From an uncultured Gammaproteobacteria bacterium (lineage in GTDB: Bacteria > Patescibacteriota > Microgenomatia > Levybacterales > UBA12049): 64,000 bases of DNA. Below are positions 31,671-58,751 of the stretch, piece by piece; position 1 is the stretch's first letter; every line of letters begins with the position of its first letter. The notes beneath the pieces were generated by a model. That model ran no database searches. It was not told where the DNA came from and saw only the letters and a list, made by a program, of their open reading frames with translations. Position numbers and translations under genes: made by a program. The stretch spans positions 2,883 through 66,882 of the forward strand of contig CAZGGU010000003.1 in NCBI GenBank assembly GCA_964525395.1, given 5' to 3'.

Positions 31671-33386
31671 ATGAAGCTAAATAGAATTAAATTAAAAGTA
31701 AAGGAGTTAATAAAAAATCAGAATTTTTGGATATTTTTAGCCTTTTTTATCTTCGTAGCAGCGATATTTATAATTGATAGTAAGCATGAGAGATATCCTG
31801 ACGAATTTGACAATATTTTAGGTGGAAAGTACTTATTACAAGGTAAATTAATCTATAAAGATTGGTTTACTCATCATGGACCTTTTTCATATGTGGTTGC
31901 AGCTGTAGTAAATTTATTTAGCTTTAATTCCTTTGTTCTTTTTAGATTCTTCTATGCAATATTTTTACTTTTGCTAACATTTGGTTCATATTTTTATATC
32001 AAGTCTAGCCTTAAAACAGTTGAAACTAAATTTTATTTATTTTTTATATTCTTTTTGGGATTAGCATCAACATATTTCTGGGGACAAATGCTTCTCGCTG
32101 ATAATCTGGCAGCTTTTCTTCTAACTCCAGTTTTTGCATTGGTCTTTTTGAAATCAATCAATAATTTGAAGTTTAGTACAAAAGATTTTATTTTTATTTC
32201 AGTATTTTCATTCCTCGCGTTGATGAGCGCACTAACATATTCGTATTTAGTGGCGGGTGTTTATGGTTTTGTATTTATTTATTACTTATACCAAGAAAGA
32301 AGGAAGTCTGACCCAATATATTTATTGAAAATGATTGGTGTAATTCTATTGCCATTTGTTTTATTCCTACTTTATTTAATTGTCACGGGATCTTTAGGAA
32401 GCTATTTTTATGATGCAGTGAAATTTAATCGAGATTTTTATATCTACTATCCAGGATTTGAAGGAAAACCTCCCTCAAATCCAATTAGATACGGAATTAT
32501 CATGCTTCAAGGTTTTCATAATAATTTTTCTTCGATGATGCTAGGCGTTAGAGATTTCAATTTCACTTATCCATTTAACATTTCTCTAGGTGTCGCCAAT
32601 ACAGCTCTCGCAATTTATTTAATTCTTAAAAAGAAATATTTACCAGTTTTACTTCTCGTAGGTGTTTTAGTGTATGCAAATGCAAGAACTAATCCTTTTA
32701 GTTCTGCTGAAACTGACTATCAGTCAGCAGTTTACATAATGATCTCTCTTTTTAATCTTTGTTTCGTAATCCCTGCGCTTTATAGAGAAATAAACATTTC
32801 ATCAGATTCAGCTAAAAAAATTATTTGTGGAGTACTTTTTATACTGGTATTAGTTTATAGCTTTTTCTGTTTCACATTTATATTAAGAAAGTTTTCTTAT
32901 AAAGCTTATGATAAATATATGGGATTGGCTTCCTCTATCTATGACGGTCCTAGAATCGCACCTGTGATGAATAGAATTGTTCCTAGTGATCATTATTCCT
33001 GGATTGGTCCTTTTGCATTTGAAGATTTGTATTACTTAGATTCCAAAATCCCTTCTAGATATCAGGTTTTACTTCCAGGAATGGGTAAATCTGAGAAAAT
33101 TCCCGCTGAAATAATTTCAGATTTTGAAAAAAATAAACCTGACGTAATTTATTTTGATAAAGATTTCTTTATTTTAGGGGGTAATCCCGCAGTTTACGGA
33201 AAATTCTTTATGGACTTCTTAGGAGAGAATTATTACAAGCTTGATGAGATCGATAACGGAGCATATCAGTATTCCGATGGCGTTGATAGATCATTTTTAT
33301 TTGAACAAAAGCTTTATATAAGCAAAGATAAAGCGCCTGAGGTAGTTAAGCGACTTAAATCAGAAGGATTAATAATAAATAACTAA
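31671..33386 (+). CDS. GT-C-like polytopic membrane protein (ArnT-like N-terminal loop)
   Basis: DEFDNILGGKYLLQGKLIYKDWFTHHGPFSY fits the DE...Y...G...Y..(K/H)PP ArnT-type motif. About 12 TM plus a C-terminal soluble region. Confidence 0.55.
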   Translation: MKLNRIKLKVKELIKNQNFWIFLAFFIFVAAIFIIDSKHERYPDEFDNILGGKYLLQGKLIYKDWFTHHGPFSYVVAAVVNLFSFNSFVLFRFFYAIFLLLLTFGSYFYIKSSLKTVETKFYLFFIFFLGLASTYFWGQMLLADNLAAFLLTPVFALVFLKSINNLKFSTKDFIFISVFSFLALMSALTYSYLVAGVYGFVFIYYLYQERRKSDPIYLLKMIGVILLPFVLFLLYLIVTGSLGSYFYDAVKFNRDFYIYYPGFEGKPPSNPIRYGIIMLQGFHNNFSSMMLGVRDFNFTYPFNISLGVANTALAIYLILKKKYLPVLLLVGVLVYANARTNPFSSAETDYQSAVYIMISLFNLCFVIPALYREINISSDSAKKIICGVLFILVLVYSFFCFTFILRKFSYKAYDKYMGLASSIYDGPRIAPVMNRIVPSDHYSWIGPFAFEDLYYLDSKIPSRYQVLLPGMGKSEKIPAEIISDFEKNKPDVIYFDKDFFILGGNPAVYGKFFMDFLGENYYKLDEIDNGAYQYSDGVDRSFLFEQKLYISKDKAPEVVKRLKSEGLIINN

Positions 33387-35237: not shown

Positions 35238-36286
35238 AAATAGCAATTGATATTTCACCTTTAACTTCAGGACACAGTGTTCGTGGAACAGGTTTCTATT
35301 TATTAAATCTCAAGTCAGCACTCGAAAAATACTTTCCTGAAAACGAATATGTTTTTTTTAAAACTGAAGATGAAATCCCACACGATGCACAGCTAGTTCA
35401 TTTTCCTTATTTTGATCCCTTTTTCTTAAATTATCCTAAAACCAATTTACCTAGTGTAATTACAGTTCATGATTTAACGCCCATTGTTTTTAAAGATCAG
35501 TTTCCTGCTGGGATAAAAGGGAATATTAAATGGCAGGTGCAAAAAAGAAAGCTTAAGTCTACGAAAAATATAATTACAGATTCTCATGCTTCTAAAAAAG
35601 ATATAGTTAAGTTTGTTGGGCTACCTCAAAACAGTGTGGAGGTTGTCTATTTGGCTGCTGCAGAGCATTTTAAGCCAATTTCTAAATCGGAAAAAGAAAA
35701 AATAAATAAGAAGTTTAATCTTCCTAATAAATTTTTACTTTATGTGGGTGATGTTACCTGGAATAAAAACCTTCCAAACCTAATTAGAGCTGTTATTGAA
35801 TCTGATGTTAATCTAGTTATTGCTGGTAAAGCTTTTATAAATGAAGAGTATGATAAGGCTAATCCATGGAATAAAAGTTTTCACGAAGCTAAAGTGCTCG
35901 CAAGTTCAAGTGAAAAAATTAAAGCATTGGGTTTTATTTCAGATGTTGATTTAGTAGGGTTATATAACTGTGCCCTAGCTACCATTATGCCTTCATTTTA
36001 TGAAGGCTTTGGTTTACCTGTTCTTGAAGCAATGCAGTCAGGTTGCCCAGTTATCACATCAAAGCGAGGGTCACTTGAAGAAGTGGCTGGTAGCGCAGCT
36101 TATTTTATTGATCCCGACAGCACTCTTTCTATAAAAGAGGGGATACTGGAGGTTTTCTCTAATGATAATTTAAGAAAAGCAATGTCAAAAAAGGGCATTA
36201 TTCAAGCTAAGAAATTTAGCTGGAAGAAAACTGCAGAAGAGACACTAAAAGCTTATGAAAAAGTTATTCTTGAATCAGGAAGTTAA
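35234..36286 (+). CDS. GT4 (GT-B) glycosyltransferase
   Basis: MKIAIDISPL N-terminus. EGFGLPVLEAMQSGCPVITS C-terminal motif. Confidence 0.85.
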   Translation: MKIAIDISPLTSGHSVRGTGFYLLNLKSALEKYFPENEYVFFKTEDEIPHDAQLVHFPYFDPFFLNYPKTNLPSVITVHDLTPIVFKDQFPAGIKGNIKWQVQKRKLKSTKNIITDSHASKKDIVKFVGLPQNSVEVVYLAAAEHFKPISKSEKEKINKKFNLPNKFLLYVGDVTWNKNLPNLIRAVIESDVNLVIAGKAFINEEYDKANPWNKSFHEAKVLASSSEKIKALGFISDVDLVGLYNCALATIMPSFYEGFGLPVLEAMQSGCPVITSKRGSLEEVAGSAAYFIDPDSTLSIKEGILEVFSNDNLRKAMSKKGIIQAKKFSWKKTAEETLKAYEKVILESGS

Positions 36287-37421
36287 TGTTAGGATAATTG
36301 CAGTTTTGTTTATTGCATGGAAAATTTTAGATTTGGTTTCAATCTATTTTTCTTCACAAATTTTAAAACCTAGTAATTTCCCGTACAAGGATATACTTGC
36401 GAAATTTTACTTACCCCATACTATTACCTCTTTTGCTAATTTTGATGGAATTCAGTACATTACGATAGCAAAAGAGGGGTACTATAATTTCAGTCAAGCA
36501 TTTTTCCCTTTCTATCCTATCTTTATTAAATATGTAGCCTTGTTCTTGAACTACAATTACATACTTGCAGGCGTATTAATTTCAAATATATTTTTCTTCT
36601 TAGGACTTATTATATTTGCCAAATTATTAAGAGTGCTTAAATTTTCAGAAAATAACATATTATGGTCTATTTTATTTCTTTTATTTTTTCCTACTTCTTT
36701 TTACTTTGGCTCAGTATATGTGACTGGTTTTTTCTTCTTTCTATTAATAGTTTTCATATACTTAATGCATAAGAAGAGAATTATTGGGAATATTTTTATT
36801 GGGATAATAATGGGGCTCTCTACGATTAACGGTATTCTAGTTTCTATTTCTGTGATACCTCAGATAATACTGGAAAGAAAAATCGACAGAACACTAGTAG
36901 TCTATATTCTCAGTCCCATAGTCGGTCTTTTAATATATTCAGCATATTTATATCAATCTAAAGGAGATGCGATTTATTATTTGCATTCTCTCCCCGCATT
37001 TGGAGTGAATAGAAGTACTTCTATAGTATTTTTACCACAGGTTTTGTATAGATATATAAAAATATTCCTAACTTCCCAGATTAATTATCAATTATTTATT
37101 GCAGTATTAGAATTTATTTTTTTTAGTTTAGGTTTTTTCTTGATTCTTTATTTCCTTTACCTTGTTTTTAAAAAAAGAGAAAGTAAAAATTATAATACCT
37201 TGTTGTTTATTGGAATTTTTTCTTTAGCTAATATATTAATCTCAACACTAACGGGTACGTTGACCTCTACTCCTAGATATATTTTATATTCTTTGTCAAT
37301 ATTTGTAGTTTTACCTATCATTTTAAATAAAAGGTATGTTAAATTTATGGTTTTGCTGATATTCTTAGTATTGCATGTAATTCTTGTATCGTTTTTCTCT
37401 CAAGGGTATTTTGTTTCATGA
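36255..37421 (+). CDS. polytopic membrane protein, possibly PIG-V/GT-C-like mannosyltransferase
   Basis: FDGIQYITIAKEGYYNFSQAFFPFYP resembles the W/FDxxxYxxIAxxGY...AFFPLYP motif of that family (from memory). About 10 TM. Confidence 0.45.
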   Translation: MKKLFLNQEVNVRIIAVLFIAWKILDLVSIYFSSQILKPSNFPYKDILAKFYLPHTITSFANFDGIQYITIAKEGYYNFSQAFFPFYPIFIKYVALFLNYNYILAGVLISNIFFFLGLIIFAKLLRVLKFSENNILWSILFLLFFPTSFYFGSVYVTGFFFFLLIVFIYLMHKKRIIGNIFIGIIMGLSTINGILVSISVIPQIILERKIDRTLVVYILSPIVGLLIYSAYLYQSKGDAIYYLHSLPAFGVNRSTSIVFLPQVLYRYIKIFLTSQINYQLFIAVLEFIFFSLGFFLILYFLYLVFKKRESKNYNTLLFIGIFSLANILISTLTGTLTSTPRYILYSLSIFVVLPIILNKRYVKFMVLLIFLVLHVILVSFFSQGYFVS

Positions 37422-40780: not shown

Positions 40781-41880
40781 TGAATATTTTAATTCTCAAT
40801 TGGAAGGATATTAAGAATCCTACTGCAGGTGGGGCTGAAATTGTCACATACGAGCATGCAAGAAGATGGATAAAGGCAGGGCACACTGTTACCTGGCTTT
40901 CTTCAGCATTTAGAAAGAGTCTAAAGGAAGAGACTATAGAGGGTATTAAGATTAGAAGGTTCGGAAATATATATCAAGTATATTTATTTGCCCCCTACTT
41001 TTATTTGTTCGGCGGCCAGAAGTTTGATTTAGTGATTGATGAGGTCCATGGTATTCCTTTTTTTACCCCTTTTTATGTGAGAAAGCCTAAGTTAATTCTT
41101 ATCCACGAAATAGCAGGAGAGATTTGGGATTACATGTATAGTTTTCCCTTTAATTATTTAGGAAAAGTTCTGGAGCGATTTTATCTAACAATTTATAGAA
41201 ATCAATATTTTTGGACCGATTGTAAATCAACGATCGATGAGTTAGTCAAGAACGGAATTAAAAGAAAAAGATGTATTGCAATTCCTTGTCCTTCAAACGC
41301 CAAGCCTATTAGTAAGCCAATTATAAATAAGCAATTAATTTTCGTTTCGGTTTCCAGAATTGTAAAGATGAAAGGAATAGAAGATGTAATAAAAGCCTTT
41401 TCAATAGTGAATAAAAAATTTTTAAACTCAAAACTACTTATTATTGGAGACGGCGACAAGAGATATATTAATTACCTAAAAAAGGAATTAGTCAGAGCAA
41501 ATGGAATTGAGAAAAATGTACAATTTTTAGGTTATGTAGAAGAAAAGAAAAAACTTAATATTTTAAAAAAATCTTACCTACTTCTCCATGCTTCTGTGAA
41601 AGAAGGTTGGGGAATAGTTGTGATTGAGGCAGCCAGTCAGTCTACGCCTGCAGTTGTATATAACGTTCCAGGTTTAAGTGAGTCGGTTAAAAATAAATTG
41701 ACTGGAGTAGTTCTCTCGAAAAATTCATTCGAGGAGATGGCTAATAGTGTGATTAGATTGACTCAGCAGAAAAATACATATCGCAAATATCAAAAAAATT
41801 GTTTAGAATGGGCTAATGATTTAAATTGGGATGACCAAGTTAAAAAGAGTTTATCAATGTTAAATAAATTAAAGTCATGA
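40780..41880 (+). CDS. GT4 (GT-B) glycosyltransferase
   Basis: MNILILNWKDIKNPTAGGAE...EGWGIVVIEAASQSTPAVV. Confidence 0.8.
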   Translation: MNILILNWKDIKNPTAGGAEIVTYEHARRWIKAGHTVTWLSSAFRKSLKEETIEGIKIRRFGNIYQVYLFAPYFYLFGGQKFDLVIDEVHGIPFFTPFYVRKPKLILIHEIAGEIWDYMYSFPFNYLGKVLERFYLTIYRNQYFWTDCKSTIDELVKNGIKRKRCIAIPCPSNAKPISKPIINKQLIFVSVSRIVKMKGIEDVIKAFSIVNKKFLNSKLLIIGDGDKRYINYLKKELVRANGIEKNVQFLGYVEEKKKLNILKKSYLLLHASVKEGWGIVVIEAASQSTPAVVYNVPGLSESVKNKLTGVVLSKNSFEEMANSVIRLTQQKNTYRKYQKNCLEWANDLNWDDQVKKSLSMLNKLKS

Positions 41881-42896
41881 AATTATCTAAGCCATCTGTA
41901 ACAATTATTTTAATCACATGGAATGTAGAGAGAACAATAAGTAAAGTTCTTAAAACAATCGAGGAGCAGGAATATCCAAAAAAATTAATTGAGGTTATTG
42001 CAGTTGATGGTGATTCAGATGATTCAACAGTTAAAATATTAAAGAAATCTCCTCTAAAAATAAAAGTTCTGAATAGTCCTTATCCTAAAGATCCTGAGGC
42101 TTGTAGGGGCGTAGGGCTTAAAGCTGCAAAAAACGATATTATCTGTTTTATAGATTCTGACAATTATCTACCTCATAGGAAATGGCTCAGTAAGATGATT
42201 GAGCCTTTTAATAAAGAGCCAAACATAGTTGGAACAGAGACTTTAAGGTTTGCATATAGAAAGTCAGATAATTACTTAAATAGGTATTTTGCTCTTATTG
42301 GTTCGGCAGATCCTGTGGGCCTATATCTTGGGAAAGCAGATAAGCTCTCTTATTTGACTGATAATTGGAAGTTGTATGGAAATGTGATTGGTGATGAAAA
42401 AGATTACTTCGTAGTTAATTTTAGTCCTAATGAATTTCCAACTCTAGGTTCAAACGGATTCTGCGCGCGAAGAAAACTTCTTTTAAAAGGAAAATCAGAT
42501 CCTAAGCACTATTTTCATATTGATGTGCCTTTAGATTTAGCTAGGATGGGTTTTACAAAATACGGTGTAGTAAGAGACGTAATTATTCATGACACAGCTA
42601 CTACTCTGTCAAACTTTTTAAGTAAGAGAGCAAAATACATGAGACTTCATTATCAAAAGAGATCTCGAGATAGAAGATATAAGGTATTTGATCCAAATAG
42701 TCATGATGATTTGCTTAGAATATTCCTATTCATTTTCTTTTCATTAACTTTTGTTCAACCTACTTATGTGGCGCTTAAGGGATTTTTAAAAATTAGAGAT
42801 TTGGCTTGGTTTACTCATCCAATATTTTGTTTTTCCATTATGACAATTTATACATATGCTGTACTAGAGAAATTTATAAAAACAAAATTAAAATGA
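41877..42896 (+). CDS. GT2 glycosyltransferase
   Basis: VTIILITWNVERTI...EVIAVDGDSDDST...FIDSDNYL. Confidence 0.75.
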   Translation: MKLSKPSVTIILITWNVERTISKVLKTIEEQEYPKKLIEVIAVDGDSDDSTVKILKKSPLKIKVLNSPYPKDPEACRGVGLKAAKNDIICFIDSDNYLPHRKWLSKMIEPFNKEPNIVGTETLRFAYRKSDNYLNRYFALIGSADPVGLYLGKADKLSYLTDNWKLYGNVIGDEKDYFVVNFSPNEFPTLGSNGFCARRKLLLKGKSDPKHYFHIDVPLDLARMGFTKYGVVRDVIIHDTATTLSNFLSKRAKYMRLHYQKRSRDRRYKVFDPNSHDDLLRIFLFIFFSLTFVQPTYVALKGFLKIRDLAWFTHPIFCFSIMTIYTYAVLEKFIKTKLK

Positions 42897-44068
42897 TCCC
42901 ACTTATAAAATCAACATTCTATAACGAAACAAAAGTAAAAAAAGATTTGATAAGTTTTATTAAAAAATCTAAAAAATTAAGTTTTGGTAGAGAATGTGAA
43001 AAATTTGAAAAAAACTTTGCAAAGTATCAAGGTAGAAAAAGATGCGTTTTTGTAAATAGTGGAAGTTCGGCAAATTTAGCGCTCATTCAAGCTTTGTTAA
43101 ATCTCAAAAGATTGAAGAGAGGAGATAAAGTGGCTTTTTCAGCATTAACATGGGCAACCAATGCTATGCCGCTAATTCAGCTTGGCTTGGATCCGGTGCC
43201 CGTCGATATTGAAGTAGAAACACTTAATATTTCCAGTCAAAATTTTCTAGAAGTGATTAAAAAAGAAAAAGTAAAAGCATTATTTATAACGAATATTTTA
43301 GGGTTTTGTGGCGATATAGATAAAATTAAAAAAATATGTAGAGAGAAAAATATTATTTTGATTGAAGACAATTGCGAATCTCTTGGCACGATCTATAAAG
43401 GGAAAAAACTTGGTAATTTCGGCCTCGCTTCTACTTTTTCTTTTTATGTGGGACATCATATGTCTACGATAGAGGGCGGATCAATATGCACAGATGATAA
43501 TGAGCTGGCGGACATGCTTTCTCTGGTAAGGGCACATGGTTGGGATCGAAACTTAGATTTTTCAAAACAAGATAAAATTAGAAAAAAGTTCAATGTTAAT
43601 TCCACCTTTTATTCTAGATATACATTTTATGATCTGGGATATAATTTGAGGCCAACAGAAATTAATGGATTTATCGGAAACCAGGAGCTTAGGCATATAA
43701 ATAAGATTGTAAAGCAGAGAAACAAAAATTTCTTAAAGATTGCAAAGGAAATTTATGAAAACGAAAATTTTTATCCTCTTAAATACGATCATATTGATTT
43801 AATTTCAAACTTCGCAATTCCAATTGTTTGCAAGAGTAGGGAAATTAGGGACAGAATTGTTAAGGAGTGTGAGAACAAGATTGAGATTAGGCCGATTGTT
43901 GGCGGAGATTTAACGCTTCAACCATTTTTTAGTAAATATGTAAAAAAGAGATATAAAAATTCTAATGCCAGGCTAGCTCATGAGCAGGGTTTGTATTTGG
44001 GGAATAACCCAGAATTAACAGAAAAAGAAATAAAAATTATTACTAAATTATTATCTAATGCAATATGA
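42893..44068 (+). CDS. PLP-dependent sugar 3-dehydratase of the ColD/E1 type (DegT/AAT class V fold, His replacing the Schiff-base Lys)
   Basis: TFSFYVGHHMSTIEGGSICTDD...VRAHGWDRNL closely parallels the ColD active-site region. NSGSSANLALIQAL PLP region. The track ORF starts at 42806. ATG 42893 overlaps the upstream stop (ATGA). Confidence 0.75.
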   Translation: MIPLIKSTFYNETKVKKDLISFIKKSKKLSFGRECEKFEKNFAKYQGRKRCVFVNSGSSANLALIQALLNLKRLKRGDKVAFSALTWATNAMPLIQLGLDPVPVDIEVETLNISSQNFLEVIKKEKVKALFITNILGFCGDIDKIKKICREKNIILIEDNCESLGTIYKGKKLGNFGLASTFSFYVGHHMSTIEGGSICTDDNELADMLSLVRAHGWDRNLDFSKQDKIRKKFNVNSTFYSRYTFYDLGYNLRPTEINGFIGNQELRHINKIVKQRNKNFLKIAKEIYENENFYPLKYDHIDLISNFAIPIVCKSREIRDRIVKECENKIEIRPIVGGDLTLQPFFSKYVKKRYKNSNARLAHEQGLYLGNNPELTEKEIKIITKLLSNAI

Positions 44069-44766
44069 AGATACTAGAAATAGGATCTGGTCAAGGATTC
44101 CATTTAAGCGTTTTAGCAAGAGATGATTCAAACGAAGTTATTGGCATAGATTTATCCAAAAACGATTTAAAAATCTCAAGAAAGAGGTATCCAAATTTAG
44201 ATTTTAGATATATGAACGCCGAAAAGCTTAAATTTAAAAAAAATACTTTTGATGAAATATATGCGCTCGATGTATTAGAGCATGTCGATAATTTAAATAA
44301 GGTCCTTAATGAAATTACCAGGGTTTTAAAACCTGGAGGAAAATTTATTATTAATATTCCTTACCATAAATCTGAGCGTTGGCTTCTTAAAGTTCGCCCT
44401 ACATTTCATAAAGAAATTCACCATGTCCGAATTTTTGGAGAGAAAGAGCTTGAATCTATCTTAAAAAAGAAAAAATATAAATTGCTTAAGAAGGAAAGAA
44501 AAGAGTTTCTTCAGCACATTGAGCTATATGTCTTATTTAGACGAAAAATAAAATCAAAAACACAATTAAGTATTGGTAGTTGGAGAGACACATATTTTAC
44601 AAAATTTGTTCATGTAGCAGTCCTTTACACGAATCCAGCTGTATTAAAAACTCCATTAGTATATTTTCCAATTTGGATTATTACACTTCCGGTTGGAGGT
44701 GTTATTAACTTTATTGCTAATCAAAAATTTCCAAGATCTCTATATTACATATTTGAGAAAAAATAA
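44065..44766 (+). CDS. class I SAM-dependent methyltransferase
   Basis: ILEIGSGQGFH motif I. LDVLEHV...LKPGGKFII post-I motifs. Confidence 0.7.
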   Translation: MKILEIGSGQGFHLSVLARDDSNEVIGIDLSKNDLKISRKRYPNLDFRYMNAEKLKFKKNTFDEIYALDVLEHVDNLNKVLNEITRVLKPGGKFIINIPYHKSERWLLKVRPTFHKEIHHVRIFGEKELESILKKKKYKLLKKERKEFLQHIELYVLFRRKIKSKTQLSIGSWRDTYFTKFVHVAVLYTNPAVLKTPLVYFPIWIITLPVGGVINFIANQKFPRSLYYIFEKK

Positions 44767-45735: not shown

Positions 45736-46731
45736 ATGAAAAAGAAATTACTCTTATCTATTATTACGCCTACATTAAACAACCAGAAAGATATTAAGAG
45801 ATTTCTGAATTATATTAATTCTCAAAAAAAAGAAACATTCAATACTGAAATAATTGTTTTTGATGGTGGATCATCTGATAGAACCGTAGAGATTGCAAGA
45901 AAACTTGGTGCAAAGGTATATGAAAACCCTTTTGTTTTAGCTGATTCTGGAGTTAATTTAGGAATTAAAAAAGCTAAAGGTGAAATCTTGATGATTCTTG
46001 CAGTGGATAATATTTTTTATGAAAAAGATTCACTTCAGAAAATGGTTAATGTTTTCAAAGATAAAACTATTATGGCAGCATTTCCCATACATTCAAGTTT
46101 AAAAAGTGATTCGCTATTTACGAAGTACATAAATAATTTTACTGATCCATTTAATAATTTTGTTTATGGTTACGCAGCAAACGGAAGAACATTTAAAAAG
46201 GTATTTAAAACACTTGAGTCAAATGAACTATATGAAATTTATGATTTCTCTTCAAGTAGTGAAAGGCCTTTAATTGCTTTTGCTCAAGGTTTTACAATCC
46301 GTAAAGGTTTTACAAGAAATAAAGATAGAAGTCACGATGATGTATTGCCGGTAATTGATTTGATAGTGCAAGGAAAGAAAATAGCATTTGTTTATTCTGT
46401 GCGACTGCATCATCACACAGTGCGAAATTTAAGTCATTTTATTAGAAAACAGGCTTGGGCTACTTTAAATTCTCTTCAAAGAAAAAAATATGGAATATCC
46501 TTTCGAAGGGTTTACTTGTCTGAAGGACAGCAGCTTCGGATGAATTTCTGGCCATTTTATTCACTGCTCATTTTTCCAGTAGTCATCAGGGCTTCTTACA
46601 AGCTTGTTAGAGATCGTGATAAATTATGGCTTTTAGATCCTATTTTGTGTATTATTTCTGCTTACACAAGCTTAGTAGTAGGATTATCATATTTATTTAA
46701 TAAAAAAATGGCATTTAAGAGACAAAAATGA
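45736..46731 (+). CDS. GT2-like glycosyltransferase
   Basis: LSIITPTLNNQKDI...EIIVFDGGSSDRT. The DXD equivalent is less clear. Confidence 0.65.
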   Translation: MKKKLLLSIITPTLNNQKDIKRFLNYINSQKKETFNTEIIVFDGGSSDRTVEIARKLGAKVYENPFVLADSGVNLGIKKAKGEILMILAVDNIFYEKDSLQKMVNVFKDKTIMAAFPIHSSLKSDSLFTKYINNFTDPFNNFVYGYAANGRTFKKVFKTLESNELYEIYDFSSSSERPLIAFAQGFTIRKGFTRNKDRSHDDVLPVIDLIVQGKKIAFVYSVRLHHHTVRNLSHFIRKQAWATLNSLQRKKYGISFRRVYLSEGQQLRMNFWPFYSLLIFPVVIRASYKLVRDRDKLWLLDPILCIISAYTSLVVGLSYLFNKKMAFKRQK

Positions 46732-47660
46732 AAACTTTTATTCACCCTTCAGCGATTGTAAAAACAAAAAAAATAGGTGATAAAACTACAATTTGGGCAT
46801 TTTGTAATATTTTAGAAAAAGCCTCAATTGGAGAGAATTGTAATATTAATGATAGGGTTTTCATTGAAAATGATGTTGTAGTAGGAAACAACGTGACAAT
46901 AAAAGTCGGTGTGTCTCTGTGGGATGGATTAAGAGTGGAAGATAATGTTTTTATTGGCCCGAATGCTACTTTTTCTAACGATATTTTCCCAAGAAGTAAG
47001 AAATATCTTAAGAAATATCCTCAAACGGTACTTAAGAAGGGATCTTCTGTCGGAGCAAATTCAACAATTCTCCCAGGGATTACAATTGGTGTAAATTCAA
47101 TGGTAGGGGCAGGTGCAGTTGTAACGAAAGATGTTCCTCAGAATGCAATAGTTGCGGGAAATCCGGCAAGGATAATTGGATATATTGATGCTAAAAATGA
47201 GAAGCTTAAGCAAGTCAATGCTGGAAATGGTCTCAAGAAAAGTAAAAGCCACATAAGAGTTAAAGGTGTTAAGGTCTATTCTCTTCCAGAATTTAGTGAT
47301 ATTAGAGGAGATTTAATTGCTGGAGAATTTCTGGATCAGATCCCTTTTTTAATCAAGAGGTTCTTTATTGTTCACAATGTGCCTAATCAGGAGGTAAGAG
47401 GAGAGCACGCTCATAAAAAATTACAACAATATCTTATCTGCCTGAGTGGCTCTGTAAGTGTAATCGTAGACGATGGTAAAAAATCGGCTGAGATATTGCT
47501 TTCTCCGCTTCAGACAGGGCTGTACATAGGACCAAAAGTGTGGAGCGTGCAGTACAAGTTTAGCAATAACGCTTCTTTGCTTGTTTTGGCTTCAGAAAAG
47601 TACAAATCGGAGGATTATTTAAGAAATTATAATGATTTCTTGGACTTTATTAAAAAATGA
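46728..47660 (+). CDS. WxcM-like bifunctional protein: N-terminal hexapeptide-repeat sugar N-acetyltransferase + C-terminal FdtA-like cupin (dTDP-4-keto-6-deoxyhexose 3,4-ketoisomerase)
   Basis: LbH repeats VVGNNVTIKVGVSL...IGVNSMVGAGAVV. C-terminal RGEHAH motif and cupin strands as in FdtA. Confidence 0.75.
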   Translation: MKTFIHPSAIVKTKKIGDKTTIWAFCNILEKASIGENCNINDRVFIENDVVVGNNVTIKVGVSLWDGLRVEDNVFIGPNATFSNDIFPRSKKYLKKYPQTVLKKGSSVGANSTILPGITIGVNSMVGAGAVVTKDVPQNAIVAGNPARIIGYIDAKNEKLKQVNAGNGLKKSKSHIRVKGVKVYSLPEFSDIRGDLIAGEFLDQIPFLIKRFFIVHNVPNQEVRGEHAHKKLQQYLICLSGSVSVIVDDGKKSAEILLSPLQTGLYIGPKVWSVQYKFSNNASLLVLASEKYKSEDYLRNYNDFLDFIKK

Positions 47661-48763
47661 AAATTAATTATCTTGATATTAAAAGGGCTCATAATTTTAT
47701 TCTTCCTGAGTTAAATAATTCACTTGAGAAGGTAATAAAAAGTGGATTGTTAATTTTAGGTAAAGAGCTAGAGGGGTTTGAGAGAAAATACGCTAAGTTT
47801 ACAGGGACTAAGTATGCTTTAGGAGTTGCTAATGGCTTAGATGCGCTCATACTTTCGTTAATGGCTCTTGATGTTAAGGAAGGAGACGAAGTTATTGTTC
47901 CATCCAATACATATATTGCTACAGTTTTAGCAATTTCTAGAGTTGGTGCAAAACCAATTTTAGTTGAACCAAACAAAGAAACGTATAATATTGATCCGAT
48001 GGAGATAGAGAAAAATATTTCTAAGAAAACAAAGGTAATCATTCCAGTTCATTTATTTGGTCAAGTTGCACAAATGGATGCAATTATGAAGATTGCTATA
48101 AAGCATAAGTTATTTGTCGTGGAGGATAATGCTCAGTCACACGGAGCAAAATATATGAATAAAATGGCAGGTAGCTTTGGGCATATTAATGCTACAAGTT
48201 TTTATCCTGGAAAAAATTTAGGTGCATTAGGGGATGGGGGGATGATCACAACTAATAGTAAATCTTTATATGAAAAAGTGAAGATAATGCGCAATTATGG
48301 TTCAAAAATAAAATACTATAATGAGATCAAAGGTTATAATTCTCGACTGGATGAACTTCAAGCTGCTTTTCTGAAAATAAAACTTAATTATTTGAAATCG
48401 AATAATAAATTAAGAAAAATGAAAGCTGATAAATATCTCTCTGAGTTAAAAAATATAGGAGATATTATTTTACCCATGACAGATTCAAATTCTACGCATG
48501 TTTATCATATATTCAACATCAGAACTAAAAAAAGAGATTCATTGAAGAAGTACTTAGATCAAAATAAGATTGGAAATTTGATTCATTATCCAGTCCCCCC
48601 TCATCTTCAGAAAGCTTATGCCGAATTAGGATTTAAAAAAGGAGATTTCCCCATCGCAGAAGAACTTGCTAGTACTTCGATAAGCCTACCGATTTATCCA
48701 GAATTAACCGATAATGAGCAAAATTTTGTTATATTAAAAATAAAGGAATTTTATGAAAAATAG
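47657..48763 (+). CDS. DegT/DnrJ/EryC1/StrS-family sugar aminotransferase (FdtB-like, PLP-dependent)
   Basis: GVANGLDALILSL...DNAQSHGA...SFYPGKNLGALGDGG, with the Schiff-base Lys present. Confidence 0.85.
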   Translation: MKINYLDIKRAHNFILPELNNSLEKVIKSGLLILGKELEGFERKYAKFTGTKYALGVANGLDALILSLMALDVKEGDEVIVPSNTYIATVLAISRVGAKPILVEPNKETYNIDPMEIEKNISKKTKVIIPVHLFGQVAQMDAIMKIAIKHKLFVVEDNAQSHGAKYMNKMAGSFGHINATSFYPGKNLGALGDGGMITTNSKSLYEKVKIMRNYGSKIKYYNEIKGYNSRLDELQAAFLKIKLNYLKSNNKLRKMKADKYLSELKNIGDIILPMTDSNSTHVYHIFNIRTKKRDSLKKYLDQNKIGNLIHYPVPPHLQKAYAELGFKKGDFPIAEELASTSISLPIYPELTDNEQNFVILKIKEFYEK

Positions 48764-49718
48764 TCCCTTAGTTTCAATTGTTATTCCGACATATAATAGA
48801 AAAATACTTGTTGAAAGATTGATTAAGAGCATATTGAAAAGTACCTATAAAAATCTTGAAATAATTGTGATAGATGACGCATCTGCTGATAATACTCTCG
48901 AATATATATCTTCAAAATTTAGAAAAAATAAAAATATAAAAATTTTTAGAAATAAAATTAATCAGTTTGCTGCAGGAAGTAAAAATATAGGTCAATCAAA
49001 AGCCCAAGGAAAATTTATTGCATTTATAGACGATGATAATGTTGTGGATCAACAAATGATAGAGAAGCTTGTAAATGTTTTGTTAAAAAATGATGTTGTG
49101 GGCGAGGTGGGTCCAATTAACTATAATTTTAATAAAAAAAAATTGGTACTTCTAACTAGATCTACTAGAAATATGTGGACGACCAAAACTAACCATTTAA
49201 GAACTTTTAAGCCGTTTGGGGCTCTTAAAGAATGGGAAGCAGATGATATACCAAATGCTTTCATGGTCAGAGCAGATGTAGTAATTAAAAATAAAATTAA
49301 ATTCAGACCAAAATATGGAATTATGTATGAAGAAAGCGATTATGCATATAGAATCAGAAGGGCTGGCTTTAAAGTTTTGATGGTACGTGAGGCTAAGATA
49401 TATCATGACATTGAGGATTCAAATTCTAAAGAGAATAGTAAAGATTACCTGTATCATTTTATGGAAGATAAAAGAAGACCATTTGTTTTTGCAAGAAACA
49501 GAGTAATTTTTCACTCCTTATATTCAACCCCTTTGCAAAAATTCGTAATTTATTTATTTTGGATTTGGTTTTTCACAGCTTATTACGTTTATAAATTTTT
49601 ATTTTATAATGGATATGGCAATTTTAAGTTTAAAAATAAATTATCTGCAGCAATTAGCTATATAAAAGGGACTTTTAACGGGTTTGGTTTTGCACTTCTG
49701 AAAACCTCTAAAATATGA
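48753..49718 (+). CDS. GT2 glycosyltransferase
   Basis: VSIVIPTYNRKILV...EIIVIDDASADNT...FIDDDNVV. Confidence 0.8.
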   Translation: MKNSPLVSIVIPTYNRKILVERLIKSILKSTYKNLEIIVIDDASADNTLEYISSKFRKNKNIKIFRNKINQFAAGSKNIGQSKAQGKFIAFIDDDNVVDQQMIEKLVNVLLKNDVVGEVGPINYNFNKKKLVLLTRSTRNMWTTKTNHLRTFKPFGALKEWEADDIPNAFMVRADVVIKNKIKFRPKYGIMYEESDYAYRIRRAGFKVLMVREAKIYHDIEDSNSKENSKDYLYHFMEDKRRPFVFARNRVIFHSLYSTPLQKFVIYLFWIWFFTAYYVYKFLFYNGYGNFKFKNKLSAAISYIKGTFNGFGFALLKTSKI

Positions 49719-50527
49719 AGAAATTCAATTATTCTAAGCAGTCAATTTTTAAGTTTTATTTCTTTTATTTATTTTATAAACTATTAATCCCATTTGAAGT
49801 AAAAAAAGGAAAAATAAATATTATTGTAGCGGAGTTTATATGGGTTAGTAGTAAGTTATTTAGATTTAAACCATTCCTCTTTAAAAATTTTACCTCTAAT
49901 TATTATGAAACAAAATTTGGGAAATTTTACATAAATCCAGACTTGATTAGTACAATTGCTGCCTCTCCTTCTTTTGAGAGGAAAGAGATTGAGATTCTTT
50001 TAAAAATGATAGAGTCTGACGTTTCGAATAATAAGAAAATATTATTTATTGATGTTGGGGCATTTTTTGGTCTATATACCGTATTGGTTGGTAATAGATA
50101 TAAAAAATATAAGAATTTGGACATCATGTCATTTGAGCCAGACACATTTTATCTGTCAGATGCCACATTTAATTTAATCAAAAAAAATATAAAGGTTAAC
50201 AATATAAAAAATTCAAAGTTATATCATTTTGGTTTGGGATCAATCAATTCAAACAAAAAAAATAAGAAAGGAATAATTACCAAAAAATTAGACACAGTTT
50301 TAACTAAAAAGATACTAGTTAAATACGATTCAGTATATATAAAAATAGATGTGGACGGTTCAGAAAAAGATGTATTATTGGGTGCAAAGAGCTCTATAAA
50401 AAATGCCAAGGAGATTACACTTCTTATTGAAGATTTTGTTGACCAAAGAATAGTTAAGTATTTATCGAAAGATTTTGAATTTATCTCAAAACCTTCTAGT
50501 TATAACAGTTTTTGGAAAAAGAAATGA
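49715..50527 (+). CDS. FkbM-family methyltransferase (putative sugar O-methyltransferase)
   Basis: IDVGAFFGLYTVLVG...FEPDTFYLSDATFNL resembles the FkbM domain. Confidence 0.55.
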   Translation: MKKFNYSKQSIFKFYFFYLFYKLLIPFEVKKGKINIIVAEFIWVSSKLFRFKPFLFKNFTSNYYETKFGKFYINPDLISTIAASPSFERKEIEILLKMIESDVSNNKKILFIDVGAFFGLYTVLVGNRYKKYKNLDIMSFEPDTFYLSDATFNLIKKNIKVNNIKNSKLYHFGLGSINSNKKNKKGIITKKLDTVLTKKILVKYDSVYIKIDVDGSEKDVLLGAKSSIKNAKEITLLIEDFVDQRIVKYLSKDFEFISKPSSYNSFWKKK

Positions 50528-52812
50528 AGAAGCTATTTTCTCTAAAGTTTTTCAATCTTTTAGCAATAATTTTTATTTTAGCGCTCCCATACTATTTATT
50601 TGATGGAAAGCTATTTTTAGGGGGAGATGACACCAGGCTTCTTTATTCTTATCCAGTTGAATTTGTGAAGAATATAACTTTTTTCTCATGGCATAATGTT
50701 TCAACGACAGGCATTAGTGCAGCAGATCAATATATACTGCCATTTTTATCAGTTTGGGTACTTCTTTCAGCAATCATTCCCTCAAAGTTAATTTTGGCTT
50801 ATCTCGCATTCTCACTCCCTGTGATAGTGGGCATGATTGGTTTTCAAAAATTAGTCAGAGAACTTTTTGAATTAGAAAATAATAATGTCGTGATTTTTCT
50901 TGGTAGCTTATTTTATGTATTTTCTCCAATTCTGATTCAAGATCAGTATTTTATTTTTCTCACAGCAATTTGGCTCATAGGGTTAATTCCTATTAATATC
51001 TATTTATTTATACGGTATTTAAAAACTTCTGATTTTAAATATGTATTTTTTGCCGCCACATTTTGTATATTCTTTTTAGGAATATTATATTCACTTCCAT
51101 GGGTTTTTGGAACATTTTTACCTCTATTTCTTGGACTGATTTTTGTTTCTATATTTTTCAGGAAAAAAGATATTTTATTTTTTATTAAAAAACTATTTAT
51201 TTTTTGTGGATTTATAGGATTAACTCAGTTTTTTTGGATCGCAAATTTTGCATTATCTTATTTTTCGAAGAGTTCAAATAGTTTTGCGCAAAAATTTGTT
51301 TCTCAAGATTTTCTTGACACGTTTACTCCGACTGTATTTACTACTGCAACAGGGAGCATATTTTACCCAATACTCAACTTATTTCATCGACAAATAGCAT
51401 TTGATTTTGAATGGACATTATCAGGAATATTTAATAATTATTATGATAAAACGTATATCTTTAACGTCGTTTTCATTTTTGTTCTTTTTATTGGTCTTTT
51501 ATACTTTCGAAAATATTCAAATAAAAAGAATCAGATTATCTTTATATTTTTATTCATAAGTTTTCTTATCTCTTTGTTTTTATTCACGGTTAACATAGGA
51601 CCTTTAAAAGATTTGTTTACATACTTGAGATATGTTCCCGGATTTATTATGTTTAGGAATTTCTATGACAAATTTGCAATTGGCTACATTCTAATTTACT
51701 CCTTATTAATAACTTACTCATTGTTAATAGTTCATTTGAAATTTAATATAAAATTTTGGCTAGTATTTGGAATATTTTCGCTAGCGATATTCTTTAATTT
51801 TTTACCAATTAAGCAAACTATAAATTCTCCTCTGTGGAAAACTAAGTCAATTTATCGTGTGATAAATATTCCAAATGAATATTTGGAAACTATGAAATTT
51901 GTTAATTCGGAAATTCCTTCTACGAACACAATTTTAAGTGTTCCTTTTGGAGCATCGATCTACACTGTGATAAAAGAAGATAAATCAAATAACGTTTATG
52001 TGGGTGCTTCTCCTGTCAGGATTTTTAGCGGAGTAAATGACATTTCAGGTCATTATTCATTTAATTTTAGTGATCAGGCAAATACAATAGACGCTGTATT
52101 TGTAGATAGAGAATTTGAAAAACTAAAGAAAATTCTTTTTGAATATAACATTAATTATATTCTGGTCACCAAGAATTTACCTGAAGAAGTAAAGAGGGCG
52201 AAGTGGCTTTATGATGAGCAAATGCTTTCTGTTCAGAATCAGGAATTTATAAATGGCATTGCAAATAAAAAGATATACACAAGCGATAATAAAAATTATG
52301 AGATTTATGATCTGAAAAATAAAAATACGATTCTTTCATCAAAAAACATTACATATCAAAAAGTAAGTCCAGTGAAGTATAGATTTTTTATTAGAAATAT
52401 AAATTCACAAAATTTAGACTTTCATGATACATATCATGGTGACTGGAAGATTTTTATCCAAAAAAATCCAAATTTAAATTGGTGTAAAAATAAAAAGTTT
52501 CTCAAAAGTGATGTAGTCGAATGCCAAGAAGCAAAAAAACTATTTGAAATTAATGATTTGAAGTATTTCTTTGAGAAACCAGTTTTTGATGACAAACATA
52601 GTACTGTTTTTGGATACGGCAATAGATGGAGTATAAACAATAAAGAAATTTCTACTAACTATAATCAAGATTTTTATGTAAAAAATAAAGATGGAAGTAT
52701 TGATGCAGAATTCGTTCTTTATTTTAAGCCGCAAACCTATTTTTATTATGGTTTTATTTTCTCATTCGTAGTCTATTTATTAGGAGCAATTTATGTCATC
52801 AAAAAAAGATAA
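50512..52812 (+). CDS. large polytopic membrane protein with C-terminal extracytoplasmic domain (GT-C-like, uncharacterised)
   Basis: 766 aa. About 14 TM in the first 450 aa, then a hydrophilic domain and a terminal TM. Confidence 0.5.
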   Translation: MEKEMKKLFSLKFFNLLAIIFILALPYYLFDGKLFLGGDDTRLLYSYPVEFVKNITFFSWHNVSTTGISAADQYILPFLSVWVLLSAIIPSKLILAYLAFSLPVIVGMIGFQKLVRELFELENNNVVIFLGSLFYVFSPILIQDQYFIFLTAIWLIGLIPINIYLFIRYLKTSDFKYVFFAATFCIFFLGILYSLPWVFGTFLPLFLGLIFVSIFFRKKDILFFIKKLFIFCGFIGLTQFFWIANFALSYFSKSSNSFAQKFVSQDFLDTFTPTVFTTATGSIFYPILNLFHRQIAFDFEWTLSGIFNNYYDKTYIFNVVFIFVLFIGLLYFRKYSNKKNQIIFIFLFISFLISLFLFTVNIGPLKDLFTYLRYVPGFIMFRNFYDKFAIGYILIYSLLITYSLLIVHLKFNIKFWLVFGIFSLAIFFNFLPIKQTINSPLWKTKSIYRVINIPNEYLETMKFVNSEIPSTNTILSVPFGASIYTVIKEDKSNNVYVGASPVRIFSGVNDISGHYSFNFSDQANTIDAVFVDREFEKLKKILFEYNINYILVTKNLPEEVKRAKWLYDEQMLSVQNQEFINGIANKKIYTSDNKNYEIYDLKNKNTILSSKNITYQKVSPVKYRFFIRNINSQNLDFHDTYHGDWKIFIQKNPNLNWCKNKKFLKSDVVECQEAKKLFEINDLKYFFEKPVFDDKHSTVFGYGNRWSINNKEISTNYNQDFYVKNKDGSIDAEFVLYFKPQTYFYYGFIFSFVVYLLGAIYVIKKR

Positions 52813-53755
52813 AAAAATAAAATATTTAATCTGCGCCACTATTTTTGGTTTATTAATTTTTTGGTGGAGCGCATCACTACTTTTTAACGAGAGTATAAGT
52901 TTTAAAGTATTAAGATACCATCATGAATTGTCTGGAGATGTTAATTCAAAAATATTAAAAGGAGATAAAATTAATAGTGAGTTTTATTCTAAGAGGCAAA
53001 ACTTAGGAATAGTAAATATCAAATTCAACAGGTATGTTAAACCTGATTTTGAAAAAGAAGATCAAATTATTTTCAGAATTAAAGAAAAAGGAATGAAAGA
53101 CTGGTTATATGAACAGAAGTATCAATCAGGGCTTTTCCAAGATTCGCCAATTTTTCCATTTGGATTTCCAATAATTACTAACTCAAGCGATAAAGACTAT
53201 CAAATTCAAATAGAATCCTTAAAAGGGAATAACTCTAATGCTTTAAGTTTAAGAAATAAAGATTATGAGGTGGATTACTTTAATACAAATCAAGATATTA
53301 AAAAGAACGTTCCTGAATATTTAATTCTAAAATCAATAAATTCTGTTTTAGATTTGAATTTCTTAATTTATTCGAGTGTTTTTTTGATTCCTTTATTCAT
53401 TTTTCTTTTTTTAATTTCTTTATTTAGGAAAAAAAATAAAAAAAACAAATATTTGCTGTTTGTCTCAATATCTTTAATTTTTATTGATATATTTATTGTT
53501 CCCGTTTATACATTTGGAATTCTGATAATTTCTATTTTAGTTTGGCTTATTAATATGAGAGTTAATAAAATAAGTAGTAATTTTAACTTTACATTTGCAT
53601 TCATTTTGTTTCTCATCTGGATTTTCTTGAAACTATTGAACATAGACGTATATACATCAAAGCTTAATATTTGGACATATGTATTTTTATCCATTGGCGC
53701 AGGAACGCTTTTATTAGAAAGTAAATTAAAAATAAGAAAAAATGCAAAAATTTAA
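52793..53755 (+). CDS. hypothetical membrane-anchored protein
   Basis: N-terminal TM, 180-aa hydrophilic domain, C-terminal 4 TM. Confidence 0.45.
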   Translation: MSSKKDKKIKYLICATIFGLLIFWWSASLLFNESISFKVLRYHHELSGDVNSKILKGDKINSEFYSKRQNLGIVNIKFNRYVKPDFEKEDQIIFRIKEKGMKDWLYEQKYQSGLFQDSPIFPFGFPIITNSSDKDYQIQIESLKGNNSNALSLRNKDYEVDYFNTNQDIKKNVPEYLILKSINSVLDLNFLIYSSVFLIPLFIFLFLISLFRKKNKKNKYLLFVSISLIFIDIFIVPVYTFGILIISILVWLINMRVNKISSNFNFTFAFILFLIWIFLKLLNIDVYTSKLNIWTYVFLSIGAGTLLLESKLKIRKNAKI

Positions 53756-54488
53756 TTACGAAAATAAACAATATCTTAGTAAATTGAATGATTTAGGGGA
53801 AAGTTATTATTCTAAATACATCTCGTTTATTAAGTTCTATTCGAAAAGAAAAGATAAAATTTTGGACGTAGGGTGTGGAACTGGGACAGTACTCTTTAAT
53901 TTGCAAAACAAAGGTTTTGTAAATCTTTATGGTATTGATGTTTCTCGGATGTTTATTAAGGAAGCCCAAAGGAAGAAGCTAAAAAATTTGAAATCTTTTT
54001 CAGGTAAAAAATTTCCTTATAAAAATGAATCATTTAATGTCGTAGGCTCATTTAATGTCTTAGAGCATACCCAGAATCCAAACTTTTTCATAAGCGAACA
54101 GATAAGGCTTCTTAAACCGGGTGGTAAATTAATAATAGCCTGTCCCAATTTCCTGTCGATCATGCTTATCAATAATTGGCATCCAAGATTGAGAGGTTTT
54201 AGGCAAAAATCAAAAAATTTTGTTTGTGTCCTTAAGAAAGTGCTTGATAAAAATTCTGAATTTGAAAAAATAAAACCGATTAAAATGAAAATCTTTAAAT
54301 ATGATAGCGATGCGATAGTCATTACTAATCTTATCGATTTAAAAAGACAGTTGAAAAAAGAAAAATGTGAAATAATATACGAGAGTGGTTTTATAAAAAT
54401 GGATTCATATATAGTTAAGATTTTGAATTTGGTTCCCTTGATAAGATATGTAAGTCCCTCCTGCTTTATAGTCGCTCAAAAAAAATGA
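53742..54488 (+). CDS. class I SAM-dependent methyltransferase
   Basis: ILDVGCGTGTVLFNL motif I. LKPGGKLIIACPNF. Confidence 0.7.
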   Translation: MQKFNYENKQYLSKLNDLGESYYSKYISFIKFYSKRKDKILDVGCGTGTVLFNLQNKGFVNLYGIDVSRMFIKEAQRKKLKNLKSFSGKKFPYKNESFNVVGSFNVLEHTQNPNFFISEQIRLLKPGGKLIIACPNFLSIMLINNWHPRLRGFRQKSKNFVCVLKKVLDKNSEFEKIKPIKMKIFKYDSDAIVITNLIDLKRQLKKEKCEIIYESGFIKMDSYIVKILNLVPLIRYVSPSCFIVAQKK

Positions 54489-57747: not shown

Positions 57748-58293
57748 ATGAAAATCGGAATTGATATTAGCCAGCTTGCTTATCCAAATACAGGCGTAGC
57801 TAATTATCTCGAAAATCTTATTGATTCATTGTTGAAGGTGGACTCAAAGAATGAATATGTTCTTTTCTATTCATCGATGAGAAAAAATTTACAATTTACA
57901 ATTTTCAATTTTCAATCAAATCCAAATGTTTCAATTAAAAAATTTAAATTACCACCGACTTTATTAAACCTGTTATGGAATAAATTACATATTCTGCCAA
58001 TTGAAAGAATTATTGGTCCAGTAGACTTGTTTATCACTTCCGACTGGACAGAGCCTCCTGCGAAAGCTAAGAAGGCTACGATCATTTATGACATGATTGT
58101 TTATAAAAATCCTGAAGAAACAGCCAAAAGTATTGTAGAGACTCAAAAGAGAAAACTAAAATGGGTTAAGAAAGAATCAGACATAATATTTGCCATCTCT
58201 AAATCTACTAAGAAAGATATTGAAGAAATATTAGGAATTGATTCATCAAAAATTAAAGTAATTTATCCAGGGCTGAATAAATTAACTAGTTAA
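57748..58293 (+). pseudogene. GT4 glycosyltransferase N-terminal-domain-only fragment (C-terminal catalytic half missing)
   Basis: MKIGIDISQL... ends at ...KVIYPGLNKLTS, the inter-domain linker position in the intact neighbouring GT4 genes. Confidence 0.45.
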
Positions 58294-58310
58294 CACATTA
58301 ACTTGTTAAC
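58282..58310 (+). repeat. tandem palindromic repeats TTAACTAGTTAAC and TTAACTTGTTAAC upstream of the four-helix-bundle gene
   Basis: Read directly. The second copy is repeated exactly at 58724-58736. Confidence 0.8.
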
Positions 58311-58324
58311 GCGTTAATAACTTT

Positions 58325-58714: not shown

Positions 58715-58723
58715 AAGAACTTT

Positions 58724-58736
58724 TTAACTTGTTAAC
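58724..58736 (+). repeat. direct repeat TTAACTTGTTAAC (exact copy of 58298-58310) downstream of the four-helix-bundle gene
   Basis: 13/13 identical. Together the two copies bracket the 390-nt gene. Confidence 0.8.
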
Positions 58737-58751
58737 TTATTTAATTATCCG

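Follow-up and report, generated by a model that had tools for sequence, protein, structure and literature searches.

The stretch of DNA analysed here, 64,000 nucleotides of contig CAZGGU010000003.1 and called the window throughout, carries on its forward strand, at 42893–44068, a gene whose product has a histidine where sugar aminotransferases of the same fold have their Schiff-base lysine. On its sequence the product is a His-type sugar 3-dehydratase dependent on pyridoxamine 5′-phosphate (PMP) and of the Fe–S-free type represented by ColD, its catalytic activity being predicted. The open reading frame (ORF) starts with the ATG at 42893, has its stop codon at 44066–44068 and encodes 391 amino acids; the Pfam family DegT_DnrJ_EryC1 (PF01041) matches it at 1.9e-66. 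The longest mechanically called ORF begins upstream, at a TTG at 42806. Because the Met-Ile encoded from 42893 is the start in 38 of 38 aligned homologues, we take 42893 as the true start. The gene and the segments discussed below are as follows.

42893–44068, + strand: gene for a predicted ColD-type nucleoside diphosphate (NDP)-4-keto-6-deoxyhexose 3-dehydratase, DegT fold with His for the Schiff-base Lys (Pfam, PDB matches, neighbour-joining tree, AlphaFold model)
43364–43381, + strand: EDNCES, residues 158–163, identical to the EDNCES of ColD; includes two conserved cofactor-site residues, Asp159 and Glu162
43439–43480, + strand: active-site strand and loop SFYVGHHMSTIEGG, with His188 in the catalytic Lys column (alignments to ColD, E1 and aminotransferases)
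43529–43552, + strand: RAHGWDRN, residues 213–220, matching RAHGWTRN of ColD; Arg219 corresponds to ColD Arg219; invariant in the family; free of Cys, where E1 has its Cys-rich Fe–S segment DCYCAPGCDNTC
43889–43909, + strand: RPIVGGD, residues 333–339; Arg333 corresponds to ColD Arg331, and Asp339 marks a derived subclade

What occupies the catalytic lysine column? His188 is the first histidine of SFYVGHHMSTIEGG (codon 43454–43456). HMMER aligns ‘GHH’ of the query with ‘SHH’ of ColD (2gms), and Yersinia E1 aligns its His220 in the same column. Four ordinary aminotransferases, one of them encoded by the window's own second DegT gene, read ‘GKN’ there. The ColD variants H188N (3b8x) and H188K/S187N (3gr9), as identified from the titles of those PDB entries, and the Lys-carrying chain of 2r0t depart from the wild type at precisely this column. 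His188 is kept without exception, in 121 of 121 close homologues as in each related locus that covers the column, so that the replacement of lysine by histidine defines the family and is not a chance event. A first-pass annotation of this DNA had proposed a DegT/aminotransferase fold, a histidine at the Schiff-base lysine position and a ColD-like sequence around RAHGWDRN; on all three points the alignments agree with it.

If the protein is a His-type dehydratase, does it belong with ColD or with E1, the 3-dehydrase of cytidine diphosphate (CDP)-4-keto-6-deoxy-D-glucose? When all PDB chains were searched, the best matches were four chains of Escherichia coli ColD or its variants at E ~4e-62 (2gms: 3.7e-62, 213 bits), aligned over residues 19–375. 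Yersinia E1 came next (3e-45, 158 bits), then 9wvy (5e-34, 121 bits). Aminotransferases reached at most 107 bits, over the N-terminal half only. An AlphaFold (AF2) model of the query has a mean predicted local distance difference test score (pLDDT) of 82.9 and a predicted template modelling score (pTM) of 0.84. The 12 PDB entries closest to this model were all ColD chains, with template modelling (TM) scores of 0.80–0.84, ahead of E1 (TM 0.80–0.81, normalised to the query) and of the aminotransferases. In a neighbour-joining tree the family is sister to ColD, and E1 forms a separate clade with a 447-residue protein of locus L017 and a 438-residue protein of locus L021, all of which have a Cys cluster.

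This cluster provides a further distinction. The E1 chain 3bcx has cysteines at 193, 251, 253 and 261, which we take to be its Fe–S ligands. Three of the four are missing from the query: the Cys-rich Fe–S segment of E1, DCYCAPGCDNTC, faces the Cys-free DRNLDFSKQDKI, leaving no counterparts of Cys251, Cys253 and Cys261. The sole counterpart is Cys161, which matches E1 Cys193 and is present in ColD too; it lies in a run (E158, D159, N160, C161, E162) that is invariant in the family alignment. E1 and SpnQ hold a [2Fe–2S] cluster through four cysteines and require a reductase, whereas ColD has no Fe–S cluster and its PMP is regenerated with glutamate (PMC8987622). In length, too, the query (391 residues) resembles the ColD chain (390) and not E1 (437). 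Since three of the four cluster cysteines are missing and the length is that of ColD, we conclude that the protein is of the Fe–S-free ColD type. The first-pass annotation had named a ColD/E1 class in general; the His-type 3-dehydratase stands, with ColD first in sequence and in structure, while E1 drops out on its cysteines. Ordinary aminotransferases, which as best matches would have counted against that annotation, came behind both ColD and E1.

How far does the resemblance to characterised enzymes extend? With ColD (WbdK) of E. coli O55 (2gms, 3b8x, 2r0t, 3gr9) the query shares the DegT/aspartate-aminotransferase fold, His188 in both numberings, EDNCES, RAHGWxRN, the counterparts of Arg219 and Arg331, the missing Fe–S Cys cluster, a length of ~390 residues and the sister position in the tree; its relatives lie in gmd–colD-like–fcl-like operons that resemble the colitose gene set. 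In ColD, Arg219 binds the pyrophosphate, and Arg219 and Arg331 both probably bear on binding of the sugar linked to guanosine diphosphate (GDP); the counterparts in the query are conserved. The query differs from ColD in having Gly187 for Ser187 ahead of the catalytic His, Asp339 for Asn and an overall identity of 36%. It differs also in its host, a bacterium of the candidate phyla radiation (CPR) where ColD belongs to a Gram-negative bacterium with O-antigen, in the want of gmd and colC within the 64-kb window, and in a subclade that is sometimes near CDP-glucose genes. E1 (RfbH, DdhC, AscC; 3bcx, 3bb8) has the same fold and the same His-for-Lys replacement (His220 = His188), and catalyses the C-3 deoxygenation that we predict, by analogy, for the query; the query lacks ~45 residues of E1's extra length and is 33% identical to it. 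SpnQ-type 3-dehydratases, which act on deoxythymidine diphosphate (dTDP)-4-keto-2,6-dideoxyglucose, belong to the same superfamily and reaction type (PMC8987622), but their Fe–S motif is missing in the query. The chain 9wvy, deposited as ‘putative NDP-4-keto-6-deoxyglucose-3-dehydratase’, matches the query over its full length at a score far below that of ColD.

The gene belongs to a large family. Of 8,000 candidates scored in a large protein database, 7,941 matched at E ≤ 1e-20. The 120 best of these matches are all ~390 residues long and 67–100% identical to the query, and the named members among them are mainly Levybacteria or ‘Patescibacteria group’. Mean column identity in the family is 76%. 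About 40 family loci (numbered L001 onwards) were found when species genomes and metagenomes were scanned, among them loci of Yanofsky-, Gottesman- and Roizmanbacteria and of two DPANN-type archaea (52–54% identity). NCBI annotates the homologues as ‘DegT/DnrJ/EryC1/StrS aminotransferase’; the automatic JGI label on many is that of E1, CDP-6-deoxy-D-xylo-4-hexulose-3-dehydrase. The family is large and already recognisable by standard searches, and one pipeline (JGI) already names a 3-dehydrase. The first-pass annotation had called 3,6-dideoxy sugars unexpected in this genomic context; for a family so large, conserved across CPR and DPANN and in part already named E1, this was an overstatement. 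A literature search on colitose or dideoxyhexoses together with Patescibacteria found nothing relevant.

Some metagenome-assembled genomes (MAGs) with close homologues (P0002, L010, L011, L017) bear the names Niabella sp., ‘uncultured Gammaproteobacteria’ or Chitinophaga pinensis, which is at odds with the CPR picture. The gene order in L010 is that of L001, and the L001 homologue also lies on a contig with a Levybacteria-like Lon. Errors of binning or taxonomy may lie behind the three labels.

What genes accompany the homologues? L013, L014, L020 and L044 share a layout of Gmd (GDP-mannose 4,6-dehydratase), sometimes a Nudix ORF, the family member and a short-chain dehydrogenase/reductase (SDR) resembling Fcl, the GDP-fucose synthase (GFS), often with overlapping start and stop codons. 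This layout is the canonical gene logic of GDP-colitose (gmd, colD, colC). The relatives with gmd operons are 52–71% identical to the query. Beside homologues of 52–66% identity, Gmd scored 501 (L013), 507 (L020), 524 (L014) and 547 bits (the archaeal L019), the cutoff being 415. In L044 a Gmd homologue 85% identical to that of L013 lies directly upstream of a homologue whose N-terminal 300 residues are 71% identical to the query. The Fcl-like SDR directly adjoins the homologue in eight loci (L013, L014, L015, L017, L020, L033, L040, L045), with Fcl model scores for adjacent SDRs of 202–403 bits. The Nudix ORFs inside two gmd operons match GDP-mannose mannosyl hydrolase best, at 58–67 bits, below cutoff. 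In the archaeal MAG of L019 a single ORF (4110–6116, 669 residues) fuses a ColD-like dehydratase (~30–409) to an RmlD/GalE-like SDR (~416–639) beside Gmd; it is a Rosetta-stone link of 3-dehydratase with reductase. L017 carries an above-cutoff set of RfbF (393), RfbG (459) and RfbH/E1 (692 bits); apart from these, an Fcl-like gene (403 bits) abuts a family member. Since a true E1 coexists there with an Fcl-paired member, the family is not an E1 orthologue.

Two kinds of accessory gene recur in these neighbourhoods. TylC3-type sugar C-methyltransferases lie 2–8 kb from family members at L003 16892–18139, L008 18649–19896, L013 2090–3268, L014 6425–7684 and L049 14538–15776, called by Pfam Methyltransf_13/14 in L003 and L008 and by 32–36% BLAST identity to the L008 copy in the rest. 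C-methylation of a 4-keto sugar intermediate is possible in the clusters with these genes. In the window an FkbM-type methyltransferase (49715–50527) takes the equivalent position. Extended SDRs of ~350 residues with ‘STNKVYG’ and ‘FGxSK’, having Phe for the catalytic Tyr of YxxxK, are found at L033 12197–13246, L040 8244–9293 and L012 13079–14122.

The window itself has a G+C content of ~30%. All named homologues of its Lon protease (74–84% identity) come from Candidatus Levybacteria, Microgenomates or Patescibacteria, from which we take the host to be a Levybacteria-type CPR bacterium. The dehydratase gene lies within a long glycan cluster, and comparable clusters surround its homologues in other CPR genomes. 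The other features of the window are these.

41877–42896, + strand: glycosyltransferase of family GT2, directly upstream of the dehydratase and, like it, part of the co-directional glycan cluster; stop codon overlapping the start of the dehydratase (ATGA)
44065–44766, + strand: class-I S-adenosylmethionine methyltransferase; its start overlaps the dehydratase stop (ATGA); position kept in L003 and L008
10678–64000, + strand: co-directional glycan cluster, ~50 kb uninterrupted, starting just past a tRNA-Glu(CTC) at 10574–10648
31671–33386, 36255–37421, 50512–52812, 52793–53755 and 54485–56497, + strand: large membrane proteins of the glycan cluster, no Pfam match
61260 to beyond 64000, + strand: ORF of at least 913 residues in the glycan cluster, running past the window edge
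46728–48763, + strand: fusion of a hexapeptide-repeat acyltransferase with an FdtA/WxcM 3,4-ketoisomerase domain at its C terminus (310 residues), translationally coupled to a Lys-type DegT aminotransferase (368 residues)
56484–57461, + strand: extended SDR of epimerase/reductase type, with ‘GSRGAC’ and with YxxxK kept; the sole conceivable 4-ketoreductase partner in the window, and a weak candidate
797–1336, + strand: RmlC-like dTDP-4-dehydrorhamnose 3,5-epimerase (146 bits, slightly under the 155.75 cutoff), adjoining a two-component system

Because start and stop codons overlap at both junctions, the GT2 gene, the dehydratase and the methyltransferase are translationally coupled. The cluster further holds ~20 GT2/GT4 glycosyltransferases, six PMT_2/GT-C proteins, a YfhO, two Wzx-like flippases and several methyltransferases and acetyltransferases. 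The acyltransferase–FdtA/aminotransferase module lies 2.7 kb downstream of the dehydratase and is kept in L003 and L008. It looks like a module for a dTDP-3-acylamino-3,6-dideoxyhexose of the Fuc3NAc/Qui3NAc type, and a second unusual 6-deoxy sugar is therefore a probable product of the cluster. The RmlC-like gene hints at dTDP-sugar genes just left of the window.

Could any other gene of the window serve the dehydratase as partner? The SDR at 56484 had been put forward in the first-pass annotation, and it is a poor candidate. Against NCBIfam it scores best with RmlB (151 bits) and GalE (149), followed by Fcl (48) and Gmd (40), missing every cutoff. Its acid/base pair is replaced by ‘GSRGAC’, which rules it out as a 4,6-dehydratase. 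With its Fcl score and ~25% identity to the Fcl-like partner SDRs of other loci, its assignment as a ColC orthologue is unsupported. It could be a ketoreductase. GalE at 34269 is ruled out as partner, being an above-cutoff UDP-glucose 4-epimerase (390 bits).

A separate observation concerns 57748–59882 (+ strand), where a 181-residue ORF with only the N-terminal domain of a GT4 enzyme is followed by a 129-residue four-helix-bundle protein (TIGR02436) and then by a complete GT4. In L008 the counterparts of the TIGR02436 protein carry the label PF05635 (23S rRNA intervening-sequence protein), and one of them also matches bAvd faintly; three small four-helix-bundle genes are dispersed within the glycan cluster of that locus.

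Which reading of the dehydratase gene fits these results best? From the fold, the histidine column, the missing Fe–S motif, the family's place next to ColD in the tree and the operons of the relatives we infer its activity, nucleotide carrier, substrate, product stereochemistry, final sugar and destination as follows. With a probability of about 0.8, the gene encodes a ColD-type, Fe–S-free, PMP-dependent sugar 3-dehydratase that feeds a 3,6-dideoxyhexose into a surface glycan, the most likely substrate being GDP-4-keto-6-deoxy-D-mannose and the product being of the colitose type. The host's surface glycans would then probably contain a 3,6-dideoxyhexose. As to the nucleotide carrier, the balance tips towards GDP; CDP is considerably less probable, and dTDP or another carrier improbable. 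The first-pass annotation had predicted a colitose-, ascarylose- or abequose-type sugar. A 3,6-dideoxyhexose is a reasonable expectation in view of the gmd–colD-like–fcl-like operons; the three named sugars are indistinguishable on this evidence, given the poor gmd linkage of the query's subclade and the four loci near a CDP-glucose module that are described below.

Several observations weigh against the ColD-type, GDP-linked reading. Identity to the characterised ColD is just 36%, and the NCBIfam RfbH/E1 model (NF011936) gives 233.8 bits, under its 423-bit equivalog cutoff; from this score and the identities to ColD and E1 we place the protein as a divergent ColD-type member, outside E1. The AF2 model is of low confidence at the very loop that carries His188 (186–192), as it is at loops 216–223 and 234–252. 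A literature search found no biochemical work on any family member. Across the 64-kb window there is no gene for Gmd, ManC, an Fcl/ColC-like protein, RfbF, RfbG or any other 4,6-dehydratase, so that what the first-pass annotation had said of GDP-mannose 4,6-dehydratase and ColC-type reductase in the vicinity holds for the whole window. The 4,6-dehydratase and reductase of the pathway must be encoded outside it.

The remaining adverse points concern the subclade to which the query belongs. At the column of residue 339, Asp is found in the query and in 119 of 121 close homologues, Asn in ColD and E1, and Asn or Ser in L012, L013, L014, L017, L019, L020, L044 and L011. Among loci with sufficient flanking sequence, one of 15 of the Asp339 type has Gmd within 5 kb, against five of seven of the Asn/Ser339 type (Fisher p = 0.004). 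In four Asp339 loci (L004, L033, L040, L049) a homologue of glucose-1-phosphate cytidylyltransferase lies 6–9 kb away (204 bits to PDB 1tzf, the next match being 70; 238 bits with NCBIfam), and together with it L033 and L049 carry an RfbG-like SDR with the S-D-K residues, which in L049 is divergently adjacent to the family gene.

Might these Asp339 enzymes, then, carry out the same Fe–S-free ColD chemistry on CDP-4-keto-6-deoxy-D-glucose, giving a CDP-3,6-dideoxyhexose of the paratose, abequose, tyvelose or ascarylose type without Fe–S or E3? The context contrast is significant, the four loci with the cytidylyltransferase homologue have no Gmd within 10 kb, and the L004 homologue is 73% identical to the query. 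Asp339 itself is not a CDP signature, because E1, a CDP enzyme, has Asn there just as ColD, a GDP enzyme, does; the residue as a signature of nucleotide specificity is untenable. Moreover, the SDR that often follows Asp339 genes (L015, L033, L040, L049, L045), and is translationally coupled to them, is GDP-fucose-synthase-like, its best PDB matches being GFS (177 bits) and GDP-mannose 3,5-epimerase (150 bits). One Asp339 locus is linked to Gmd after all (L034, with a homologue 3.6 kb away at 280 bits to PDB 1rpn), and in L045, also Asp339, the family gene has next to it an Fcl of the type found in the gmd operons. The RfbF-like proteins fall under the NCBIfam cutoff of 300, and CDP-glucose genes are missing from the window too. 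In L049 the cytidylyltransferase adjoins another DegT-like gene, possibly its real partner. That gene (17346–18566) encodes a 407-residue protein, 35% identical to E1, with ‘FYGSHI’ (Ser at the catalytic column) and no Cys cluster. We regard a CDP-linked substrate for the query as a minority view, though one worth keeping in sight. That the Asp339 subclade as a whole, predominant among CPR bacteria, is a ColD-style, Fe–S-free and reductase-independent 3-dehydratase on CDP-4-keto-6-deoxy-D-glucose, or is promiscuous towards the nucleotide, seems to us a little less probable still. If it did use CDP, CPR and DPANN organisms with reduced genomes would gain a shortcut to CDP-3,6-dideoxyhexoses with neither a [2Fe–2S] cluster nor an E3 reductase.

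Two more alternatives remain to be weighed against the GDP-linked ColD-type enzyme. A SpnQ-like enzyme could draw on dTDP-4-keto-6-deoxy-D-glucose (or a 2,6-dideoxy derivative), the precursor common to the acyltransferase–FdtA/DegT module, and yield a dTDP-3,6-dideoxy or trideoxy sugar. The closeness of that module in the window, its co-occurrence with the dehydratase in L003 and L008, the RmlC-like epimerase and the TylC3-type C-methyltransferases near family genes in five loci would all suit it. But SpnQ has the Fe–S motif (PMC8987622) that the query lacks, neither RmlA nor RmlB turned up next to a family member, the FdtA module is missing from most family loci, and 9wvy, the sole solved chain with a glucose-type label, scores well under ColD; a dTDP substrate is quite unlikely. 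Is the protein instead an ordinary sugar aminotransferase, as the NCBI names have it, or a catalytically dead paralogue? SpnQ does show an aminotransferase side-activity, but ColD and E1 show no sugar transamination under comparable conditions (PMC8987622). The Schiff-base lysine is replaced by histidine in all 121 homologues, as in ColD and E1, a separate Lys-type aminotransferase is present in the window, and the high mean column identity argues against decay. We give this last explanation very little credence.

How would the proposed enzyme work? By analogy with ColD as reviewed in PMC8987622, the 4-keto group of an NDP-4-keto-6-deoxyhexose would condense with enzyme-bound PMP to a Schiff base. 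His188 would then take the C4′ proton of the cofactor, with expulsion of the 3-OH, and hydrolysis of the enamine would release NDP-4-keto-3,6-dideoxyhexose and ammonia. The pyridoxal 5′-phosphate left behind would be returned to PMP with glutamate, so that an E3-type reductase would be unneeded. An Fcl/ColC-like SDR would reduce C-4 and set its configuration, possibly epimerising C-5 too, and one of the cluster's glycosyltransferases would attach the 3,6-dideoxyhexose to a surface glycan of the Levybacteria-type host.

Enzymes of this class are well established, in mechanism as in signature, and the finding is for that reason unsurprising to a specialist; its practical value we grade as modest. 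It bears on annotation, since NCBI names these proteins aminotransferases and JGI names them E1, while the evidence points to the Fe–S-free ColD type. The contrast between Asn/Ser339 members, which are linked to gmd, and Asp339 members, which are not, lends itself to testing. CPR organisms spend their lives attached to host cells, and hardly anything is known of their surface chemistry. If the prediction is true, 3,6-dideoxyhexoses would not be limited to the O-antigens of Gram-negative bacteria.

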